From: Infirmifilum sp.
GTDB lineage: Archaea > Thermoproteota > Thermoprotei > Thermofilales > Thermofilaceae
DNA: 17,374 nt
NCBI GenBank assembly: GCA_041287245.1
Contig: JBEULP010000114.1
Span: 1 to 17,374 of the forward strand
Reading direction: 5' to 3'
Below the pieces are notes generated by a model that saw only the letters and a list, made by a program, of their open reading frames with translations, did not search any database and was not told where the DNA came from. Every line of letters starts with the position of its first letter. The first letter of the stretch is position 1. Position numbers and translations under genes: made by a program. Positions 1,274 to 17,374 of this stretch are shown here, in pieces.

Positions 1274-1367
1274 CTGTGGCTCAGTAAACAACAAGCTAAG
1301 AGAGGCTTATAAGAGTTTCTACTCGCCTCCACCTTAAAAAAGTTCTAGTTTCACCGTTCAACGATAT

Positions 1368-1630: not shown

Positions 1631-3352
1631 ATGAGTGATACACAGAACCACGATAAAAACTTTTCGGTTGAGCCAGAAAGAGATGTTATAGAACTTCAAA
1701 AGGAGCTTGAGAACATAAAAGACATCTACGGAGCCGAAGTAATGAACAGGGTTGAGAGAGTACTAAACGTGTTACGGCTCGACGGCCAACTGGATATAAA
1801 GAGTATCATGCTAACCCTGGCAGAGTGGGATAAGCTCAGCATTGAGGAAAGGATCAGCTTTTTCGAGAAGATAAGGGGGAGGCTTGACGTAAAAAAACTC
1901 GCCAAGTGGTATGCACAACACGATAACAAGTATGCTGAAAGCCTGAATAAAGCAGAGGAGGAGGGTAGGGATCCGCCACTACCCCCGCCGAGCGTAGTAG
2001 CGGTATATCTTGCCACTAATTTCAACCTGTTCAAACCGGCATTCGCGAAAATAGGCGTCGAGCCGGAGTACGGCTTGATAGTAGGGAGGAGGTTCTACGA
2101 CAAGGAGTGGCTGAACCAGGCCGCGAGGGCGATTAGCACGCTGGGCGACCCGATATTGCCGTCACCAAGGGTTTTTCCACCGTTGTTAGAGGCGTTGAAG
2201 TCATATGCTGTGATGATTACGAATGATAAGATAAACTCGAAGAAATACCTGAACTTGAAGAATGGGGCTATAGAGCTGGAAACGCTGACACTACAGGAAA
2301 AACTAGAAGACTACATATTCACATATGAGCTACCCAGTATAGAGCCGGAGTTCATACGGGACTTGCGCGAGGGCCGTATCGATGAGAACTACTTTGCAAC
2401 GTCGGACTTCTACGTGGAGATACGTCCACACTACAGCGATAAGGAGTGGGAGAAGTTAAAAGCGGTTTTAGGCGCAATCCTAGTCCCAAAACCGTTAAAA
2501 TTGATCGCGATCATAGCAGGAGAGGGGGATACGCGTAAAACATTCCTGTTCACACTTATAAAGCGCACACTAGGTAAGCAGGCAGGCGCCATTGACCTAT
2601 CTGAAATGCAACAAAACCGGTTCGCGCTCATGAACCTAATCGAAGCGAGAGCAGTACTCACGAGCGAGGAGTCTAGAACAGTCATTAAGACGATAAACAA
2701 GCTGAAGCGTATAAGCGGAGGAGACCCGCTCTTCATTGACCGTAAGTTTAAACCTCCAGTCGAGATGGAGGACAATCCGTTGAAGATATACATCTTCACC
2801 AATGAGCTACCAGCTATAAAGGAGGTGGACAAGCCATTCCTCGAGCGCCTGGTAATTATACAGCCACAAGACCCACAGCCACCCGGGCCCGAGGAAATGC
2901 GACGCATAGAGCGAGCGCTTGAAAAAACAAGCGATTTCCTCAAATTCCTACTCTATTGCTACTGGGACTTGAAGAGAAAAGGCGAGGTGATACCGGGCAA
3001 GGGAAGTGCAGAATACGAGAGCATGCTGATAAGGGCACAGAACAACATTTACGCGTTCTTCGACTGGCTCAGCACGGAAGACTCGGATTACAGCATCACG
3101 TTCGGGCCAGGGCTGAAAACACCGGCCTCGGAGTTCTACGATGCCTACCTGATATTCTGCCAGAAAAAAGGACAACAGCCAATGGGTCGCAACACAGTCT
3201 ACGCATACATAGATTCAATACTGGCCGAACACGGAGTCATCAAGACGAGGGACTCGAGCGGAATAATTTTCAAAGGCGTAAAGTTGAATAAAAAAAGTAA
3301 TGTAGAATTGCGTTCAGACGAAAATACATATGGATGGGCATGGGAAGCATAA
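1631..3352 (+). CDS. Superfamily 3 helicase replication protein (D5/P4 primase-helicase C-terminal family)
   Basis: D5_N-like YLNLKNGAIELETL, Walker A-like GEGDTRKT, Walker B VLTSEE, B' KRISGGDPLFIDRKFK, motif C IYIFTNELP, arginine finger FLERLVII, C-terminal winged helix (ASEFYDAYLIFC...IFKGVKL); RBS GGGTGA at 1619-1624. Confidence 0.9.
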   Translation: MSDTQNHDKNFSVEPERDVIELQKELENIKDIYGAEVMNRVERVLNVLRLDGQLDIKSIMLTLAEWDKLSIEERISFFEKIRGRLDVKKLAKWYAQHDNKYAESLNKAEEEGRDPPLPPPSVVAVYLATNFNLFKPAFAKIGVEPEYGLIVGRRFYDKEWLNQAARAISTLGDPILPSPRVFPPLLEALKSYAVMITNDKINSKKYLNLKNGAIELETLTLQEKLEDYIFTYELPSIEPEFIRDLREGRIDENYFATSDFYVEIRPHYSDKEWEKLKAVLGAILVPKPLKLIAIIAGEGDTRKTFLFTLIKRTLGKQAGAIDLSEMQQNRFALMNLIEARAVLTSEESRTVIKTINKLKRISGGDPLFIDRKFKPPVEMEDNPLKIYIFTNELPAIKEVDKPFLERLVIIQPQDPQPPGPEEMRRIERALEKTSDFLKFLLYCYWDLKRKGEVIPGKGSAEYESMLIRAQNNIYAFFDWLSTEDSDYSITFGPGLKTPASEFYDAYLIFCQKKGQQPMGRNTVYAYIDSILAEHGVIKTRDSSGIIFKGVKLNKKSNVELRSDENTYGWAWEA

Positions 3353-4650: not shown

Positions 4651-4976
4651 TCATGGAACTCTCCAGGCTCTTCCTATCCTTCCTACTCAGAGAACAGGGC
4701 GGCGTCCTGAGGCAAAAACCCAGGAAGCCCCAGCTAGACCCCGACCCCCTCACCGCCTACAGCATCCCCGGCACTGATGATATCCTCCTCGAAGTGGACG
4801 GCGTCGGCCTACTAGTAGCGCCCCCCTCAGTCGCCTCAGCCTTCCGCGCCAAGCCCCCACAGGAGGAGCAAAACATACGCGTCTACGCGGCTACCAGGGA
4901 ACTCGTAAGCGAGGGACTTAGACGCGTCATCGAAGGTGCCCAGCAGAGAGGAGAGCAGAGGAGTGAGAGGCAGTGA
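4647..4976 (+). CDS. Hypothetical protein
   Basis: 4-nt GTGA overlaps with both neighbours, consistent with an operon. Confidence 0.7.
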   Translation: MIMELSRLFLSFLLREQGGVLRQKPRKPQLDPDPLTAYSIPGTDDILLEVDGVGLLVAPPSVASAFRAKPPQEEQNIRVYAATRELVSEGLRRVIEGAQQRGEQRSERQ

Positions 4977-5326
4977 AATGGTACGCGCATATAACGTCCG
5001 CCGGGCTCCTGACCGCCGCCCTCGCACCGCAACACCTACCCCTGACGCTACTCGGAGCCGTACTTCCAGACGTAGTCGAAAAGATGGTCATGGCCCCCCA
5101 CAGGAGCCTCCACGAGCTGGCCCTCTACCTGGCCCTAGCGCCGCTCATCGCCACGGGGGAGGCGGGACTCTTCCTCGGCTCAGTTCACCACATACTCCTA
5201 GACGCACTTACAATACACGGCGTACATATTTTCGGCTTCAGGGTACACGGCCCGCTGAACACCAACCGCGCTATAGACAACATTACAGTCATCCTCCTCC
5301 ACCTCCTCGCGGTGGCCATCCTCTAG
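4973..5326 (+). CDS. Membrane-bound metal-dependent hydrolase (YdjM-like)
   Basis: N-terminal His (WYAH), GAVLPD, PHRSLH and HILLDALT..GV motifs in a hydrophobic protein; T-tract terminator at 5344-5349. Confidence 0.8.
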   Translation: MKWYAHITSAGLLTAALAPQHLPLTLLGAVLPDVVEKMVMAPHRSLHELALYLALAPLIATGEAGLFLGSVHHILLDALTIHGVHIFGFRVHGPLNTNRAIDNITVILLHLLAVAIL

Positions 5327-7909: not shown

Positions 7910-8098
7910 ATGTCTGAGGCACAGTCAGGTTGGCTTCAACTGGTATTGGCGTGGTTTGTAGGGTTTGCCGCCGGGGTTGGAGCGGCTTGGGTACTCTCCC
8001 GTAGGAAGAGGATCAGCATTATCTACGCGCCACCGGTCGAGCTGGCGCCCGCGGGGTATGAGCAGGTCGACATTTATGCTGGGAGGTGGGGTGGATGA
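7910..8098 (+). CDS. Small single-pass membrane protein
   Basis: WLQLVLAWFVGFAAGVGAAWVL followed by SRRKR; TATA-like CTTATATT at 7877; ATGA overlap with next gene. Confidence 0.7.
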   Translation: MSEAQSGWLQLVLAWFVGFAAGVGAAWVLSRRKRISIIYAPPVELAPAGYEQVDIYAGRWGG

Positions 8099-8808
8099 GT
8101 AGTAAAGAGGTAGTTGATGAGGACGTCTTGAAGGGTATAGCCGCGGTAGTACTCGACGCTGTGAACTCGGAACTCGCCAAGGTGCTGACACCGCTTGAGC
8201 GTCGCGTCCAGGAGCTACAGCAACGTCAGGACAAGCTTGCGGCCGAGCTTGCCTCCGTCAGGGAGGCGACTGCAAAGGTCGCGATGGACACGGCGGCCGA
8301 GTTCGTCAAACAGGTCGTCCAGGCGGCGATAAAGGGTAGCGAGGAGAGCATGAAGGGACGCATCGAAGTAGCCACGGAGCCTGTGATCTCAAGGCTGAAC
8401 GCCTTGGAGTCCAGGATAAACAACATCGAACACCTCCTAGAGTCTGCAGGACGGGATCTAGGGGAGGCTGTTGCCGCCGCTACGGCCGAGGTTCAAAAGG
8501 CTGGCGAGGAGGCTGTGAAGCGCATCGAGGAGAGCGCCGCCGCGGTGTCTGGGTATAAACAGGATCTAGAGAAGATTTTACGCACGGTCGAGTCGATGAA
8601 GCTCGCCTTGGATGGTATAGTGAAGGCACAGGCGAGGATGGCTACGAAGGAAGACCTCGCGCAAATCACCCAGTTGAGGAATAGCATCTACGAGCTTATG
8701 ACCTCGATGGACGCGCTCCGACGCCGCCTGGAGGCGCTTGAGAAACAGGTAAGCCGTAGGCGTGGCGGAGGCGGTGAGGAAGAGGAGGGAGGAGAGGTAG
8801 AGATGTAG
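8095..8808 (+). CDS. Long coiled-coil protein
   Basis: Continuous heptad pattern, acidic Gly/Glu tail; ATG 8095 after GGAGGTGGGGTGG. Confidence 0.8.
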   Translation: MSSKEVVDEDVLKGIAAVVLDAVNSELAKVLTPLERRVQELQQRQDKLAAELASVREATAKVAMDTAAEFVKQVVQAAIKGSEESMKGRIEVATEPVISRLNALESRINNIEHLLESAGRDLGEAVAAATAEVQKAGEEAVKRIEESAAAVSGYKQDLEKILRTVESMKLALDGIVKAQARMATKEDLAQITQLRNSIYELMTSMDALRRRLEALEKQVSRRRGGGGEEEEGGEVEM

Positions 8809-8818
8809 GTGAGACCCA

Positions 8819-9775
8819 GTGGGCTACGTGCTCCATCTGACGCCAGAGGACATTATAGCCAGGGCTAGGGCCCAGCTCACTGCTAAGCAGTTACCCTCGG
8901 TTATTCTGAGGCCAGCTGGAACCGGTAGCTCTCTCTACGGGGTCTTCGTTAAGGTCGAGGGCATCGGCATTATCGGGCAGTACATTGGCCACATCGAGTA
9001 CACAGTCTCAGGCCCCGACGGCCCCGAGGAGATGTGGGAGATAACATATGGCTACACCGAGCTGTTCGCACGCATCGACTCGGCCAGCGCCACAGTGTTC
9101 ATACCGGTCGCCTTCGGCGCGATGAGTAAGACCGCCCGGCGGCTCATCGAGGCTGAGAGGCCCCCGCTTTACGAGCACAAGGAGGTGCGTGGCTCGATCA
9201 CCGTGCCGAAACGCGCACTCGTAAACCTTGACGACGTGATGGCCGGCCGGGACTTCGTGCTCCGCGTCGACCCCTACGGCGTCACAGTCCCCACCGACAT
9301 ACGAGAGCGCGCGGCCGAGCTTGGCAGGCAACTCGAAGTGGTGCGCCGGGCCTACACCCTGCTACAGAGGGAGTACGAGCGGGAACGCTCCAGGCGGGAG
9401 GTAGCCGAGGCACAGCTCGCCAGCCTACTCTCAGTCCACGAGGAGCTTAAAGGCAGGCTCGCCACGACCGAGGCCACCGTTAGGAGCGCGGAGACCATGC
9501 TACTTGACATGCGCTCACGGATCTCAGCCCTCTCCACAAGGGTCGCGACTGAACGCGAACTGAGAGAACAGCTGGCCAGCATCACAGAGGATCTCGCCGC
9601 CTCCATCGAGACCGCCCGTAAGGCCCTCGCCGCCGCCAGGACGCTGATATCGGAGGCCGTGGAGGCGGTGGGGCAACAGCCCGAGGAGAAGCCTGAGGAG
9701 AAAGAGGAGAAAGGGAAGCCGCCACCACCACAGGAGGAGAAGCCTGAGGAGAGAGAGGAGGGTGAGGCGAAGTGA
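8819..9775 (+). CDS. Protein with beta-rich N-terminal domain, long coiled coil and acidic Pro-rich tail
   Basis: 318 aa; RBS AGGTGA; tail PEEKPEEKEEKGKPPPPQEEKPEE. Confidence 0.8.
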   Translation: MGYVLHLTPEDIIARARAQLTAKQLPSVILRPAGTGSSLYGVFVKVEGIGIIGQYIGHIEYTVSGPDGPEEMWEITYGYTELFARIDSASATVFIPVAFGAMSKTARRLIEAERPPLYEHKEVRGSITVPKRALVNLDDVMAGRDFVLRVDPYGVTVPTDIRERAAELGRQLEVVRRAYTLLQREYERERSRREVAEAQLASLLSVHEELKGRLATTEATVRSAETMLLDMRSRISALSTRVATERELREQLASITEDLAASIETARKALAAARTLISEAVEAVGQQPEEKPEEKEEKGKPPPPQEEKPEEREEGEAK

Positions 9776-10377
9776 GTGAGAGCAGGAGGCTTAGCGACCT
9801 CTCTCTCTTCGAGCTTTACACGCTACTCGTAAAGGAGTTCGCCACCGGTGGCGACGACCCGCTCGCCAGGGAGCGCATGTCACGGATAGCAGGTGAGATG
9901 ATCCTTAAGGTGCTACAGCTACAGCCCTCCGTTCCAGAGGGCAACCCCAGGCTTACACAGACGTTTCTAGCGAGGTTCTCCGAGGCGGTCTCCGGCCTCG
10001 TCTCATCGCTCACACACCTCCAAGTCGACCTGGAGAGCGCTACTAGGAGGGTGGTCAGGGAGAGGATCTCGGAGATTGGCGCACAGCTGGGAGTACTCGC
10101 CACGCTATCCAAAGCCCCCGTCAAAGCCCCGCTGGGAGGCCTCGCATCACGCGTCGACGTCAGTAGCCTCGCACAACAGCTGGGAGGCACGCCCGCCAGG
10201 GTCTACAGCTACGTCATAACCGTCGGCAGGGCCTCATCCCGTATGCTCTCACAGTGGGCCTCCGCGCTCAACATCCCCCTGGAGGAGCTTGAGGCGTCTC
10301 TGACGGAGCTTGTAAGCCGTGGCCTGCTCAGGGTGGAGGCTAGGGGTGGAGAGCTAGAGTATATCCCAGGTGAGTAA
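9772..10377 (+). CDS. Helical protein with C-terminal winged-helix domain
   Basis: C-terminus ARVYSYVITVGRASSRMLSQW...LEELEASLTELVSRGLLRVEARGGELEY fits a wHTH; GTGA overlap. Confidence 0.75.
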   Translation: MSESRRLSDLSLFELYTLLVKEFATGGDDPLARERMSRIAGEMILKVLQLQPSVPEGNPRLTQTFLARFSEAVSGLVSSLTHLQVDLESATRRVVRERISEIGAQLGVLATLSKAPVKAPLGGLASRVDVSSLAQQLGGTPARVYSYVITVGRASSRMLSQWASALNIPLEELEASLTELVSRGLLRVEARGGELEYIPGE

Positions 10378-10711
10378 CGTGATCGAGATAGAGCTGTACC
10401 TCCTAGAGGGTTGTCCACACTGTGAACGTATGACACGCATCATCGAGACCTGTGACGCCCTCCTAGCCGAAGGCGTCAGGTTCAAGGTGTTCGAGTCTAT
10501 CACAGGCCCCCTCATCAGGGGCTTCACAGGCTCCCCGCCGATGGCGAAGTTCGGCATCAACGCGGTGCCCCAGGTCGTGATACGTGCGCGCCACGGCTCA
10601 AGGACGGCTGAGATAGTCCTCATCGGGGGGCCGGGTGACGCGGACAGGAGGGATGTCTGCCAGGCGCTTGTAGACGCCGCCCGTACGCTCAAGGCGGCTG
10701 TGGAACGTTAA
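10370..10711 (+). CDS. Thioredoxin/glutaredoxin-fold protein
   Basis: IELYLLEGCPHCERM active-site motif and cis-Pro loop FGINAVPQVVI. Confidence 0.8.
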   Translation: MSNVIEIELYLLEGCPHCERMTRIIETCDALLAEGVRFKVFESITGPLIRGFTGSPPMAKFGINAVPQVVIRARHGSRTAEIVLIGGPGDADRRDVCQALVDAARTLKAAVER

Positions 10712-10750: not shown

Positions 10751-11095
10751 ATGTATGAGTTGCTTGCAGTCGCCACAGGTAGCGCGGGGGCCGGCTACAT
10801 CCTAGGCTGGGCCCTCCGCAAGCTTATAGGCGTCCTGGAAACTGTTGTCGCACTCTACGTGGGTGCCACAGCTGTGCTAGTCTACGTCGGCGTCCTATCC
10901 GTCAACGTATCCGCGCTTACATCCCTTTTATCACGCCTAACCTCCCTCTTCTCAGAATACGCGCCCCAGGTAGCCTCCCTCCTCGCCAGTAGCGCTACGC
11001 TCGGCCCGTTCGCGATCGGCTTCGCCCTCGGCTTCTTCAAGCCCCACGCCACCGCCTCGGAAGGCTCCTTCGACAGCCCCTACCTAGAAGAGTAG
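10751..11095 (+). CDS. FUN14-like membrane protein with C-terminal SPYLEE tag
   Basis: GYILGWALRKL...LVYVGVLSVN...GPFAIGFALGF pattern matches my recollection of archaeal FUN14 proteins; ends FDSPYLEE. Confidence 0.7.
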   Translation: MYELLAVATGSAGAGYILGWALRKLIGVLETVVALYVGATAVLVYVGVLSVNVSALTSLLSRLTSLFSEYAPQVASLLASSATLGPFAIGFALGFFKPHATASEGSFDSPYLEE

Positions 11096-11126: not shown

Positions 11127-11687
11127 GTGACCCGTAAACAGCCCGAGGAATACACCAAGTACTGGTCTATGAGCGCCAGGGTATATGCGGAGCGTAGGGA
11201 GGAGGGGCTGGCCGAGCGGCTCGCAGCCATGGCCGCCAGCACCCACGCGCTCGCCGGCGCGCTTATAGTCGCCAATATTTTCAACGTGTTGCAACTCATC
11301 CCGGAGTTCTGGGACGCGCTCTCACGCTTCTCAGAGATAGCCCTACTCCCGCCCGACGTCATCCGTGCACGGTACCCCGAGTTGTACAACGGCCTCATCC
11401 TAGCCTCCAGCCTCTCCACAACCGCGCATATACTCTTCGAAGTGGCGTACTCCTCGGCTAGGCGTCAGTTCATGCCGGTGTTCACAGGCGTCTGGAGGTT
11501 CGCCTTCGCCGCGTTCTTCGTCTTCGCATTGATCACGAACGCCCTGGCGGCCATCCTCATAAAGACCCCGGCGGCCATCCTCAACACTGCAATCCTAACT
11601 GTTTCAATGCCGTTCGCCTTCAACAGCCGGTACGACCGGATCAGCGAAGAAGTGAACAAGATACGTACGACGGGTGGCGGGGTATGA
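11127..11687 (+). CDS. Multi-pass membrane protein
   Basis: About four hydrophobic segments; GTG about 23 nt after TTTTATTA (11097-11104); ATGA overlap with the CPBP gene. Confidence 0.75.
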   Translation: MTRKQPEEYTKYWSMSARVYAERREEGLAERLAAMAASTHALAGALIVANIFNVLQLIPEFWDALSRFSEIALLPPDVIRARYPELYNGLILASSLSTTAHILFEVAYSSARRQFMPVFTGVWRFAFAAFFVFALITNALAAILIKTPAAILNTAILTVSMPFAFNSRYDRISEEVNKIRTTGGGV

Positions 11688-12310
11688 ACCTACCCGGCCT
11701 GTTAGTGGCAGTAGTCCTCTACTCCATCCTGGCGGCCATTGGCGAGATGATACTCTGGCACAAGTGGAAGTCCCTCACAGAATCAGGAGTGCAACCCGTA
11801 TTCCCCCTCTCAACACGCCACACCATACCCCTCCCCATCGACCGTAAAAGCACCACGGCCGCCGCTGCAGAGGTAGTGGCGCTCTGGCCCGCGGTCGAGG
11901 AGGCTGTTTACCGCATCGTGCCATACCTCGCCGCCGGGCTACCCGGTGCGGTTGCGATGGTGCCGGTCTGGGCCTTCACCCACGCGGCGAAGTTCTACGA
12001 GTATAACAGGCACCTCCCGGACAAGGTGTACATGGACTTCCTCAAGGTTTACCTTGCCTCCCTCTCACTCATAGGCATGGGACTCGCCCTCTCCATACCC
12101 CTCTCCGGAGAGCTGTGGATACCCATACCCCTCCACATGGCCACGAACTACGCGGCCCTCCAGTCGCTCAGACGCCTGGCCGAGCCCCCGAAGAAGCCAC
12201 AATTCCTGAGGCAGACCACGCAACCCCGGAGGCCCAATCAGGGCACAGCGTCACGCCCCGTGTTCAAGTCCGCGGGCGTTGGCAGGGTCAGGACTGAATA
12301 CCTCGACTGA
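11684..12310 (+). CDS. CPBP family (Rce1/Abi, type II CAAX) intramembrane glutamic endopeptidase
   Basis: Motifs PAVEEAVYR (EExxxR), WAFTH (FxxxH-like) and PLHMATN (HxxxN) in a multi-pass membrane protein; ends TEYLD. Confidence 0.85.
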   Translation: MNLPGLLVAVVLYSILAAIGEMILWHKWKSLTESGVQPVFPLSTRHTIPLPIDRKSTTAAAAEVVALWPAVEEAVYRIVPYLAAGLPGAVAMVPVWAFTHAAKFYEYNRHLPDKVYMDFLKVYLASLSLIGMGLALSIPLSGELWIPIPLHMATNYAALQSLRRLAEPPKKPQFLRQTTQPRRPNQGTASRPVFKSAGVGRVRTEYLD

Positions 12311-12393: not shown

Positions 12394-12801
12394 ATGGCTA
12401 CGGAACAATTAAAAGGGCTTATAATACCACTGGCTCTGATAATCATAACCGCACTACTCTACGCCAGCGGCGTCCCACTCGGCCTCGCGGCGGCAATCGT
12501 GCTCGGAGCCTCCGCAATCGTACTCACAGTCGAGTTCCTCAAAGCTAAGGGAATAATCAACGAATCATCGTATTGGAGCGCTCTACTGCTCGGCGAGGGC
12601 CTGCTCCTCCTCCTCGCCGCTCTCTCCGCTAAAGGCATAATCCCCCTCTCAGTCGCGATAACCGGTGACCCGCTGATCGACGCCTTCATCACCAGCACCA
12701 TCGCGGCTGTGGTAGGTGTCACCGCGGCGTACTTCCTACCGAGGCTCTACGGCAAGGTCACCGGCGAACCAGAGGTGTACAGCAGTCCCTACCTTGAATG
12801 A
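12394..12801 (+). CDS. Four-TM membrane protein with C-terminal SPYLE tag
   Basis: Four hydrophobic segments; ends EVYSSPYLE. Confidence 0.8.
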   Translation: MATEQLKGLIIPLALIIITALLYASGVPLGLAAAIVLGASAIVLTVEFLKAKGIINESSYWSALLLGEGLLLLLAALSAKGIIPLSVAITGDPLIDAFITSTIAAVVGVTAAYFLPRLYGKVTGEPEVYSSPYLE

Positions 12802-12811
12802 GGTGCCCGGG

Positions 12812-13192
12812 TTGCCCCAAGGCACCGGGCTAAAAATTTTTTCTAACGCTTCCCTAGCCCTCCTACTCCTAATAATAGCTGCCTCGCTACTCCCATCCTC
12901 ACCATCCTTCGCGCTACTCCTCGGCCTCATCGCGGTAGACCCCCTCCTCGACGTGTGGCGCTACTCCTCGGGTAAAACACAGCATGGCTTCATAGCGTTT
13001 GTCCTCGAAGTAGCCAGCGCCGCGTCTGCAATGGTGATCATGGCCTTCGCCCTACTCTACCTTACATACACCTACCTCCCCCTAGCCCTCCTACTCATCT
13101 CCATAGCGGCCCTCGACGCATCCATATCCTTCCAAGAGGCCGCTGAGATGTTAATGTCGCCCAGCAGCCCCAGCAGTCCCTATTTGGAGTAA
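12812..13192 (+). CDS. Four-TM membrane protein with C-terminal SPYLE tag
   Basis: Start most likely TTG 12812 (RBS GAGGTG at 12800-12805) or GTG 12803 rather than 12716; ends PSSPSSPYLE. Confidence 0.8.
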   Translation: MPQGTGLKIFSNASLALLLLIIAASLLPSSPSFALLLGLIAVDPLLDVWRYSSGKTQHGFIAFVLEVASAASAMVIMAFALLYLTYTYLPLALLLISIAALDASISFQEAAEMLMSPSSPSSPYLE

Positions 13193-13213
13193 AAAAGGTA
13201 TTTTTTCTCTCTG

Positions 13214-13233
13214 TTATGCACAGCTGTGCATAA
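13214..13233. promoter_or_regulatory. Perfect 20-bp palindrome TTATGCACAGCTGTGCATAA (operator or activator site)
   Basis: Exact self-complementarity; lies after an oligo-T tract and upstream of the BRE/TATA-like GAAAAAATCATTAAG of the subtilisin gene. Confidence 0.65.
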
Positions 13234-13277
13234 AACAAAGCGAAAAAATCATTAAGAACCCAACCCCACTCTTTCTT

Positions 13278-14336
13278 GTGGAATACTGGCAACTCATAAC
13301 AATAGCCCTTGTAGCCCTCATCGCGCTTCTACCCCTATCCACCCCGCCACAGCCACACCTACAGCCCCGCGTCGTCATCATGCCCCTCTACCAGGCGCAA
13401 GGCGCCGTGGCGCTTAGAGACGTCTACGGCGTGAGCAGGTACACCGGCGCCGGCGTCCGCGTAGCCGTGGTAGACACCGGGGTCGACTATACACACCCAG
13501 ACCTCTCCGGGGCCGTAGAAGCGCTTGTAAGCTTCGTCGCAACAACCAAGGACGGCGCCCCGCTCGTATGGTTTGTAGGCGTAAACGGATCCCTAGGCGA
13601 CGCCAGGAGGTTTGACGAGTACGTCAAGTCCCAGGTGGGGTTCTACGCGTGGCTTGACGAGCACGGCCACGGCACCCACGTCGCAGGCATCATAGCCGGC
13701 AACGGAGTGCTTAGCGGGGGGCGCTACGCCGGCCTCGCGCCTAACGCGAAGATCTGGGCCGTGAAGATTCTAGGCGCGCAGGGCGCAGGCTCGATCGATA
13801 CGCTGGTGAAGGCCCTACGCTGGCTCGCGGATCAACCCGTCGACATAGTAAACCTCGCGCTCGGGCTCAACGCGCCGCCCCCGGATAGCCTTAGAGATGC
13901 AGTAGCGCTACTCGCCTCGAAGGGGAAGATCGTGGTCGCGGCAGCCGGTAACAGTGGCGTCATCGGGGCTGTTGAATACCCGGCCAGGTACCCGTCCGTC
14001 ATAGCTGTGGCGGCTGTGGACGCGTCGGGGCTGAGGGCGTCGTTCTCGGCTATGGGGCTCCCCAGCGACTGGAAGCCGGACTTCGCCGCCCTCGGCGTCA
14101 ACGTGGTCAGCACGCTTCCAACGTATCAATGCACGCTTGGAAGAGGCCCCTACGCCGCCCTCTCCGGTACGAGTATGGCGACCGCTGTGGCGAGCGGAAT
14201 CCTTGCACTATGGCTTGAAGCAGTTGGCCCCCAGGCCCGCGACAAGGTATTCCTCGCCGCGTCGGCCTCCATACCTGCTAGCCCCGTGGCGTATAAGACC
14301 CTGGTACTGGGGTACGGGATCCTACTCCCCCCTTAG
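13278..14336 (+). CDS. Subtilisin-like serine protease (peptidase S8) with N-terminal signal/anchor
   Basis: Catalytic triad motifs VAVVDTG, HGHGTHVAG, GTSMAT and oxyanion AAAGNSG; hydrophobic N-terminus. Confidence 0.95.
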   Translation: MEYWQLITIALVALIALLPLSTPPQPHLQPRVVIMPLYQAQGAVALRDVYGVSRYTGAGVRVAVVDTGVDYTHPDLSGAVEALVSFVATTKDGAPLVWFVGVNGSLGDARRFDEYVKSQVGFYAWLDEHGHGTHVAGIIAGNGVLSGGRYAGLAPNAKIWAVKILGAQGAGSIDTLVKALRWLADQPVDIVNLALGLNAPPPDSLRDAVALLASKGKIVVAAAGNSGVIGAVEYPARYPSVIAVAAVDASGLRASFSAMGLPSDWKPDFAALGVNVVSTLPTYQCTLGRGPYAALSGTSMATAVASGILALWLEAVGPQARDKVFLAASASIPASPVAYKTLVLGYGILLPP

Positions 14337-14375
14337 CGCAATGCTTTTATTTATGTGTTTCAACATTTTTCTGTG

Positions 14376-15092
14376 ATGATGAGAAAAATAATACTTGTGA
14401 TAATGGCCCTATTGGCGGTTTTCGTAACCGCCTCCGCGGTTGCCACCCCGCTCACCGTAAATATTAAACTCACAACCCCGTACACCAAATACTACGTCTA
14501 CACGGCCACCACGCTCGCCGCACAGGGCAACATCACCAGCAACACGTTCACCCTCAACTACAACAACACACAGTCCTACCTCGTCAAGGCAGTCGGAAAC
14601 AATACCGTTCTCGTGTTCACCATACCCAGCGGCCTCACCACGACCAGCTTCAACGTGACCACAGTCGCGACGGTTACGTTCAACACCACCTTCCTCGGCA
14701 AGTGGCCGTTCGCCCCCAAGAGCGTCCAGGCACAGGTCGCGCCGAGCGGAGCCCCCTGCAACGCGACGGTAGCCACGTCCGACGTGGTGAACATCGTGCC
14801 CCCTGCAAAAGTCAAGCTCCAGAAGGAAGTCTTCTACCCGGCGATCTACGGCTACAGGCTCTCAGCCATCTACGTCAACGGCGCCACCAGCACCAACCCC
14901 TTCAACGTGACCAGTAGCATAACCTACAGCGTCAAGGCCGAGTACGAGCCCGTAGGGATGGCCGCCATCGACCCGCTTGTAGTCGTGGCGGTGGTCGCGG
15001 CCATAGTGGTATTCGCAATAGTCCTAGCCGCGAAGAAGGGCGGCTCCGCCGCGATGGCTGTTAAGGCGTACAACAGCCCCTACCTCGAGTAA
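14376..15092 (+). CDS. Thr-rich exported surface protein with C-terminal TM anchor and SPYLE tag
   Basis: Signal peptide MRKIILVIMALLAVFVTASAVA, beta-rich body with seven N-x-T sequons, TM helix, KK, tail AYNSPYLE. Confidence 0.85.
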   Translation: MMRKIILVIMALLAVFVTASAVATPLTVNIKLTTPYTKYYVYTATTLAAQGNITSNTFTLNYNNTQSYLVKAVGNNTVLVFTIPSGLTTTSFNVTTVATVTFNTTFLGKWPFAPKSVQAQVAPSGAPCNATVATSDVVNIVPPAKVKLQKEVFYPAIYGYRLSAIYVNGATSTNPFNVTSSITYSVKAEYEPVGMAAIDPLVVVAVVAAIVVFAIVLAAKKGGSAAMAVKAYNSPYLE

Positions 15093-16030: not shown

Positions 16031-16051
16031 CCCCCGGTCGTGAAATTCTTG

Positions 16052-16324
16052 ATGGATGAAGATGTTACCTCTCTGTTAAAAGAATTTGTGTTACGTAAGA
16101 CCGAGGAGCGCCCGCTCACGCTCACCGCGAGGCGTATAAAGAGGCTGGCCAGGGAACTCGCCGGCGAGCAGATCGACACCATATCGGCCCGGCGGCTCCT
16201 AGACCAAATCCTCGAAGAGGCGCGCGACAACAGGCGCATATTTATACGCACCGCGAAGACCGGCGCGCGAACAGTCACGGTGGCGCCATCATGGCTGGAC
16301 AGCCCGTACTTGGACGTGGAGTAG
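16052..16324 (+). CDS. Small winged-helix-like protein with C-terminal SPYLDVE
   Basis: Helix, LTLTARRIKRL, helix ARRLLDQILEE, wing IFIRTAKTGARTVTV; ends WLDSPYLDVE. GTG 16040 is an alternative start. Confidence 0.7.
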   Translation: MDEDVTSLLKEFVLRKTEERPLTLTARRIKRLARELAGEQIDTISARRLLDQILEEARDNRRIFIRTAKTGARTVTVAPSWLDSPYLDVE

Positions 16325-16786: not shown

Positions 16787-16836
16787 CCCCCGGAAGATAG
16801 AAAAGCTAATAAACACTTAAACCGTAATCCTAGTTG

Positions 16837-17374
16837 ATGAAGAAGAAAATCATAGGTCTGGTTACAGCCGCACTAATCCTACTAGCCCTCTTCCTCGCCG
16901 CAACCCCAAGGCACCCGTCCCAGCTCAACGCCGGCGTCGAAGTACCCACCACAGTCGCAGTCCAAGTCCAAGTCGTCAGGAACGGCAAGGTCGTAGCCAC
17001 GTACGAGAAGGTCGGAGACCCACTCCTCTACAACTTCTGGGCCCTGCTGCTGAACAGCTTCCTCGGCCGCTACTACAACTCGCCCCTCACCATCTACAAG
17101 ACCGACGGGACGACGTTCACCCAGCCCGAGTGGGAGTGGCTCAACTCTCCCGGAACCACCCCTGTGTACGGCAACCCGTTGCTGGCTATCGGCTACGGCA
17201 CCAGTAGCCAAGCCGTTAGTTTCTACGACTACCAGCTGGGCGGGTACGCCACCTTGGCTGACGTGCCCTCCACCGGCTACAATTTAGTCGTGAACTCTTC
17301 GCACATGGTGGTTCAGGCGACCGCGTCGTTCACAGTATCCACCGCCGTGACTGTAAACGAGGTGGGGCTCTACT
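16837..17374 (+). CDS. Exported or membrane-anchored structural protein with tail-collar-fibre-like motifs (3'-truncated)
   Basis: Manual translation, open to window end: MKKKIIGLVTAALILLALFLAA...VQVVRNGKVV...LAIGYGTSSQAVSFYDYQL...VTVNEVGLY. Absent from the ORF track because there is no stop in the window. Confidence 0.8.
   Translation, partial: MKKKIIGLVTAALILLALFLAATPRHPSQLNAGVEVPTTVAVQVQVVRNGKVVATYEKVGDPLLYNFWALLLNSFLGRYYNSPLTIYKTDGTTFTQPEWEWLNSPGTTPVYGNPLLAIGYGTSSQAVSFYDYQLGGYATLADVPSTGYNLVVNSSHMVVQATASFTVSTAVTVNEVGLY

Follow-up and report, generated by a model that had tools for sequence, protein, structure and literature searches.

The gene at 11684..12310 (+) of the window, by which we mean the whole 17,374-nucleotide stretch analysed here and which is an entire contig (G000:C26), belongs to the co-inherited core of a family of mobile elements found in Thermoproteota, and its product represents a new subfamily, specific to these elements and distinguished by its tail, within the established CPBP (Rce1-like) glutamic intramembrane proteases. 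Several neighbouring genes end in a short C-terminal tag whose form is particular to the element, and this element-specific tag system is a more surprising result than the protease; it may also be further from anything described. The reading we favour, while regarding it as evenly balanced between right and wrong, is that the enzyme is an active protease recruited by its own tail into a membrane complex of the element, with an element protein anchored in the membrane, and not the tags, as its target.

The protease reading frame has an ATG start and encodes 208 residues, and both its extent and its three motifs are as given in a preliminary description of this DNA. These are EExxxR (EEAVYR, residues 72–77, with E72, E73 and R77; 11897..11914, +), WxxxH (WAFTH, residues 96–100, with W96 and H100; 11969..11983, +) and the oxyanion-hole motif HxxxN (HMATN, residues 151–155, with H151 and N155; 12134..12148, +), and the full Rce1/CPBP catalytic set of E72, E73, R77, H100, H151 and N155 is present. 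The protein scores 21.6 bits (E 2.8e-4) against the Pfam Rce1-like family (PF02517), for which the cut-off is 22.4; nine of ten homologues match the same family at E<=1, and four homologues from related loci lie above the cut-off at 22.8–25.4 bits. Alignment of 16 homologues, sharing 16–72% identity, reveals only eight invariant columns (E72, E73, R77, P80, W96, H100, H151 and N155), six of which are the catalytic residues. We conclude from these sequence features that the product is a membrane protein of the CPBP family that has all of the catalytic residues, and that it is likely an active glutamic protease.

The catalytic residues of the CPBP family are defined, in the accessible text of both sources, in PMC5874806 and PMC11980579, the first of which gives those of MmRce1 as E140, E141, R145, H173, H227 and N231 and has its cavity opening to the cytosol. 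The six residues listed above follow the same order with similar spacing, H100 lying 28 residues past E72 compared with 33 in MmRce1, and EExxxR is helical in the AlphaFold model; the Pfam match, just under the cut-off for the protein itself, is a further likeness. The model is a confident helical bundle (pLDDT 77) of about five helices, as against eight in MmRce1, apparently arranged as one N-terminal helix followed by a four-helix catalytic core, and it ends in a basic tail of about 45 residues that is disordered from residue 171 (pLDDT <50). Further departures from Rce1 are that this tail is long, tagged and predicted to be cytoplasmic, and that the gene belongs to a mobile element. Membrane topology may be read from the positive-inside rule, and this together with homology to MmRce1 suggests that the active site, the tail and the tags of the neighbouring proteins all face the cytoplasm.

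Searches of the PDB with protease profiles matched no chain, Foldseek with the model returned nothing at E<=0.001, and MmRce1 was absent from the listings of all of the fold searches. The best VIA match to model residues 1–165 is SpdC (6u0o_A; Z 8.2, rmsd 4.5, 138 residues aligned), which raises the possibility that the protein is a non-catalytic scaffold or regulator that binds and positions a partner, such as the upstream membrane protein, the subtilisin described below or a lipid, its conserved polar residues serving in binding. SpdC is CAAX-protease-like, and its known functions are non-catalytic in the available text (10.1101/2020.05.21.109470; PDB 6u0o); like the role proposed here, these functions are carried out within a membrane complex. 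It would also suit a scaffold that the protease gene overlaps the gene of an untagged membrane protein, and that in one homologue (G058, a sequence outside the 16-row alignment) a phenylalanine replaces the motif-1 arginine. However, the catalytic residues are almost the sole invariant positions, the Z score of SpdC is tied with that of the unrelated MtrE (7.3), in a wide fold search SpdC ranks only seventh (Z 5.2), and a shared fold does not establish function. SpdC, of the SagB-SpdC complex, is an eight-helix protein encoded on the chromosome that scaffolds a cell-wall hydrolase, in a pathway that archaea lack. We consider a scaffold role for the protease improbable.

At the start of the contig are two mobile-element markers, a tyrosine integrase (4–708, +) and a D5/P4-type primase-helicase (1631–3352, +), and the contig is thus part of a mobile element. 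The core upstream module spans 8086..10711 (+) and contains four genes, all candidates for the tag reader, which encode a coiled-coil protein (8086, +), a globular and coiled-coil protein (8819, +), a helical and winged-helix protein (9772, +) and a CPxC thioredoxin-like protein (10370–10711, +). These are followed by a FUN14-family membrane protein (10751..11095, +; tag SPYLE at 11075–11089) and by an untagged multi-pass membrane protein matching no known family (11127..11687, +), whose stop codon overlaps the protease start (ATGA) and whose orthologue sits immediately 5′ of the protease in most elements. Two multi-pass membrane proteins lie downstream (12394..12801, +, tag SPYLE at 12784–12798; and 12716..13192, +, tag SPYLE at 13175–13189), the second of which likely starts at GTG 12803, judging from homologue length. 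Next are an untagged exported subtilisin (S8) protease that is also a core gene (13278..14336, +), an exported beta-rich protein that ends in a helix and a cytoplasmic tail (14355..15092, +; tag SPYLE at 15075–15089) that is Ig-like through weak Pfam matches of its homologues, and a small protein in which we see no membrane helix by inspection (16040..16324, +; tag SPYLD at 16301–16315). The protease had been described as flanked by tagged membrane-protein genes, and this holds for the next gene downstream and the second gene upstream but not for the untagged gene directly upstream; likewise four of the five tagged genes do encode membrane proteins, and 16040–16324 is the exception. The same module recurs in the longer related loci and comprises two coiled-coil proteins, winged-helix, CPxC thioredoxin-like and FUN14 proteins, the untagged membrane protein, the protease, two small membrane proteins, the subtilisin, a single-pass protein that is exported, and surface proteins of larger size.

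Some further features of the module are worth recording. The thioredoxin-like protein of 10370–10711 is without a signal peptide, and its CPxC and a downstream proline are invariant in 11 elements, which suggests a dedicated cytoplasmic thiol-disulfide enzyme of the module. In one related locus (L049:2–1504, on G378:C4) an AAA+ ATPase gene lies immediately 3′ of the winged-helix gene and is a candidate tag reader or remodeller; there is a weak DUF1257 match in L030, small genes of similar appearance occur in L021, L025 and G068, and no close orthologue of the ATPase was seen in G000. Very large exported proteins of 3252, 1087 and 1971 aa are also found in the module (L014:12146 to L016, which is G039:C8 12146–25161, and G058:C8 19837–25749), the one of 1971 aa carrying the tag of its own element at its end. 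A CdvA/PRC-barrel (Cdv/ESCRT-like) identity of the 8819 product is unsupported, an 8819 model having found coiled-coil matches only. CdvA-like proteins of Thermoproteales are treated in PMC11188069, in the available text of which these elements are not mentioned.

Five reading frames of the window (10751, 12394, 12716, 14355 and 16040) end in SPYL[ED], no more than two residues from the stop, and no frame on the other 118 contigs of the genome ends in this way. More broadly, YL[ED] falls within two residues of the C-terminus in 5 of the 50 six-frame ORFs of at least 100 aa on the contig and in none of 3315 elsewhere. The protease itself ends in TEYLD (12293..12307, +), a looser copy of the tag, and the degenerate EYLD end noted earlier is real; a membrane-proximal tag-like copy, FLRQ, of the F[LVI][KR] form, is also present in its tail (12203..12214, +). 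Its relative P0002 (70% identical, and the only one found by a word-indexed search) retains GRVRTEYLD exactly while the preceding linker has diverged, and an EYL[DE] end is retained across four lineages down to about 32% identity.

These repeated ends might in principle reflect the DNA and not the peptide, either as a repeat serving as a recombination or cassette site or as a by-product of ribosome-binding sites, with the EYLD end of the protease arising by chance. All five window tags do fit a single 17-nt pattern in which serine is always encoded by AGY, and the arginine-rich tags of some other elements could overlap purine-rich ribosome-binding sites. However, each of the five DNA matches lies at the end of a gene and in its reading frame, they differ at synonymous positions only, neither another frame nor the minus strand has a match, and in other elements AGY and TCN serine codons are mixed; the constraint therefore acts on the peptide. 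Retention of the EYL[DE] end in four lineages, together with the lack of YL[ED] ends among the host ORFs, also argues against chance, and we regard this reading as largely refuted and very improbable.

In most elements the tag is found on the same set of orthologues, and each element has its own dialect of it. For example, SPYL[ED] in the window element is replaced by SPF[IL]E in L030, SEWLE in L019, L021 and L023, SEWVE in L028, EW[FVW]E in L024 and L025, KWLE in L027, RRxLRR in G039, [VI][KR]Y[ILV] in G058, [KR]YW in G068 and KFVxR in G701, so that the charge of the tag flips between acidic and basic while the catalytic residues of the protease stay fixed. We compared the tails of four fixed orthologues in each of eight elements, keeping the two that are untagged and omitting G068, in which clear orthologues were wanting. 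The tail score is 22.9 for unrelated genes of one element (48 pairs), 13.1 for orthologues across elements (112 pairs) and 12.8 for unrelated genes across elements (336 pairs). Within one element, unrelated genes have like ends, whereas the ends of orthologues differ from one sister element to another; this pattern implies that the element encodes a reader with which many proteins have co-evolved in concert. Such an arrangement, if borne out, would give mobile elements of archaea a previously undescribed means of building a membrane machine and keeping it insulated. A scan for proteins whose residues change with the charge flip gave no clear reader, the columns found being scattered and confounded with phylogeny. 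We also note that the orthologue of the small soluble 16040 protein has a SPYLD-type end in two elements of the SEWLE dialect (L021:14609–14863 and L019:9325–9579), and that inversion or shuffling of blocks of the module distinguishes close elements (L023 and L021), the orthologues of 8086–10370 being on the opposite strand in L023, with the tags nonetheless retained.

Whether the protease belongs with this module was asked using the 8819 protein as an independent marker, searched in place of the protease to avoid circularity. Seventeen of 401 genomes match it, two of them (G378 and G224) strongly and the other 14 non-self genomes through weak coiled-coil matches; G701 and G058 are further marker genomes. 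All four elements found through the marker in these sampled genomes, on which the presence test rests, carry the protease. In G224 and G058 it shares a contig with the marker, and G378 and G701 have it on a separate short contig. Profiling against tagged proteins had been proposed as a check in the preliminary description, and among the elements checked a tagged element lacking the CPBP gene was not found. When 120 genomes of the class are ranked by protease match, the top four are the four that are marker-positive, and the protease and marker trees have groupings in common (Mantel rho 0.57, reached in 19 of 20000 permutations). About ten core genes show the same co-occurrence across the elements, and the protease is therefore not singled out as the enzyme of the tag.

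An exhaustive search for relatives of the protease gave nine representatives at 27–72% identity; where a source is named it is Thermofilaceae, Thermofilum, Infirmifilum or Desulfurococcaceae. Genome searches added G039 and G068, and a metagenome scan gave 15 loci. No relative was found in IMG/VR scans with four queries, by tblastn against phage and plasmid records, in one GTDB pattern scan or in the first metagenome scan. The stretch itself is present in three hot-spring DNA runs, all from one study, with no RNA run among those listed, and related elements occur together within the same samples as 80–95% variants. There were 11 weaker matches to the protease profile in the 120 genomes, and the 7 of these that were examined are all short chromosomal-type CPBPs without a tagged tail. 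Such short archaeal proteins and the three CPBP genes of the host share the same motifs, and the small ones are of similar minimal size, but they lie among housekeeping-type genes, and those examined end shortly after the last helix or have no motif there. The element proteases separate from the three host CPBPs by one branch with moderate support (84/80, not starred).

The tail of the protease loosely tracks the dialect of its element, and it is a real copy of the tag, if the poorest among the tagged proteins. The observed match between tail and own-element dialect was reached in 167 of 40320 permutations, a figure that overstates the case because the elements are kin, compared with 9786 of 40320 for a control internal segment of the protease; with two related elements left out the count is 6 of 720, and with narrower windows the signal is weaker (1224 of 40320). 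The element of origin ranks first for only three of eight tails; the window ranks second, and L030 and L025 fifth to sixth. Two or three aromatic-aliphatic-charged copies are present in 14 of 19 element proteases, and four of the KFVxR-type sequences have three. The family assignment made in the preliminary description is right, and of the two roles offered there, that of another recruited client is better supported than that of processing enzyme.

The processing role would have the protease bind the aromatic-aliphatic-charged core of the tag and cut the cytoplasmic tail, with the membrane helix of the client taking the place of a prenyl anchor and the degenerate tag of the enzyme acting as a pseudo-substrate or a site of self-cleavage. 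The protease is present in every tagged element checked, its own copy of the tag is systematically imperfect, and most tags lie after the last membrane helix, roughly 8–30 residues beyond it in most clients, on the side where the cavity opens; CPBP enzymes do act on C-terminal signals in the accessible part of the literature. Rce1 acts on a prenylated CAAX cysteine in the available text of PMC5874806, and in MYXO-CTERM and its kin, in what is accessible of 10.1101/2023.06.07.544157 and PMC11980579, a cysteine motif precedes a membrane helix. There is no CAAX or cysteine-bearing substrate near the protease, where the tags are SPYL[ED], and of 40 proteins only 4 have a cysteine among their last 60 residues (36 have none). 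It is not conserved in any of the 4, and is absent from all five window proteins tested, which are the four tagged membrane proteins and the protease.

A close parallel is with myxosortase MrtX and the other Mrt enzymes (of the MYXO-, JDVT-, Synerg- and CGP-CTERM systems), in that a dedicated CPBP subfamily co-occurs with a repeated C-terminal motif, and the signal takes lineage-specific forms there just as the tag takes element-specific dialects here. The accessible accounts give the Mrt signals as a cysteine motif, then a membrane helix, then a basic cluster, on exported proteins, whereas the tag follows the helix, is cysteine-free and is carried by multi-pass proteins, by a soluble one and by the protease too. 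In the NCBIfam release searched the protease matched no family at E<=0.05, and PHROGs likewise gave no match. Only one of the five SPYL[ED] proteins of the window looks exported, three being multi-pass and one without a membrane helix by inspection. A tag that lacks cysteine, follows the last helix, varies in charge and also occurs on a soluble protein is not a signal of the CAAX or MYXO-CTERM type, and the analogy drawn to these in the preliminary description does not survive. It also counts against processing that the charge flips beside constant catalytic columns, that the tag may lie anywhere between 0 and 24 residues from the C-terminus, that a helix-less protein is tagged, that tandem copies in the tail suit avidity more than a single cut and, as weak evidence, that the tail is undocked as well as disordered in the single-chain model. 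We think it unlikely that the protease is the processing enzyme of the tag.

These properties fit a docking motif better than a cut site, since the tag is cysteine-free, lies after the helix at 0–24 residues from the end, varies in charge and is carried by multi-pass proteins, a helix-less protein and the enzyme, and it is this pattern that favours a recruited active protease. On multi-pass proteins and on the helix-less protein, removal of the tag would sort nothing. We envisage that the tag would be a short docking motif for a putative element-encoded cytoplasmic hub, which would bring the tagged proteins together in a single patch of membrane that probably serves for budding or DNA transfer. 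The protease may dock at the patch through its tail, multivalently in those lineages with two or three tag copies, and would cut in or beside a membrane helix, its most likely substrates being single-pass surface proteins or leftover anchor or signal helices; together with the exported subtilisin it could then mature the structure. Several observations weigh against recruitment of an active enzyme: its own tag is the poorest copy, the putative catalytic residues are kept by SpdC, which acts non-catalytically, the G058 homologue has lost the motif-1 arginine, the charge-flip scan gave no clear reader, and the tags are on the side where the CPBP cavity opens and are hence physically reachable.

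A related possibility is that the enzyme serves exclusion or quality control, with the tag as a mark of self and the protease degrading either unassembled element proteins or the membrane proteins of a competitor that bear another dialect. The likeness of tags within elements and their divergence between them, as scored above, would be expected of such a mark, the 80–95% variants found in the same samples would provide the competitors, and CPBP genes have been linked to self-immunity in the accessible part of the literature. Two dialects (SPYLD-type and SEWLE) nevertheless coexist in the single elements L019 and L021, and the protease, whose core is not unusually variable, has been inherited together with the module. 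We hold this explanation to be improbable.

More speculatively, and although we think it unlikely, the element family could have a private addressing code, in which at least six unrelated C-terminal ends have been rewritten to an element barcode. A dedicated, cysteine-independent Rce1-like protease, docked or checked by its own barcode, would read and cut this code, maturing a membrane structure (a vesicle, a virion envelope or a transfer apparatus) and preventing its mixing with the parts of competitors. The mobile elements of these archaea are poorly known, and neither the element family nor the tag turned up in the open-access literature that we searched; subscription papers and supplements might list the genes. 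Few prokaryotic CPBP proteins have known substrates, and those that are tied to C-terminal signals need a cysteine; for the subfamily described here the candidate substrates and partners form a short closed list within one gene cluster and are directly testable.

Several minor features of these elements can be noted. In ESM Atlas the leads for the untagged membrane protein of 11127 were all sub-0.9. A small untagged membrane protein (window 4973–5326) is conserved in Thermofilaceae-type loci and has a homologue with a weak YdjM match. No CRISPR match to the element was seen in the host, which has one short array. Genes for a Holliday junction resolvase (Hjc) lie inside related elements (L025:3121–3540 and L021:7514–7834), and a 37-nt stretch of the window (1288–1324) is 92% identical to G000:C86 31534–31570. 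On the minus strand at 1115–1294 is an extremely acidic short ORF of 59 aa, possibly a DNA mimic. At the end of the window, 16834–17374 encodes an exported protein interrupted by the contig end, with no library match found; its homologues are of about 390 aa with a conserved FRISP-like strand at the end, which we take to be reminiscent of phage tail-collar-fibre domains. Finally, two related imperfect intergenic palindromes, at 1048–1095 and 13194–13253, are centred on ACAGCTGT and are possibly operator sites for the ribbon-helix-helix protein encoded at 1410–1601.
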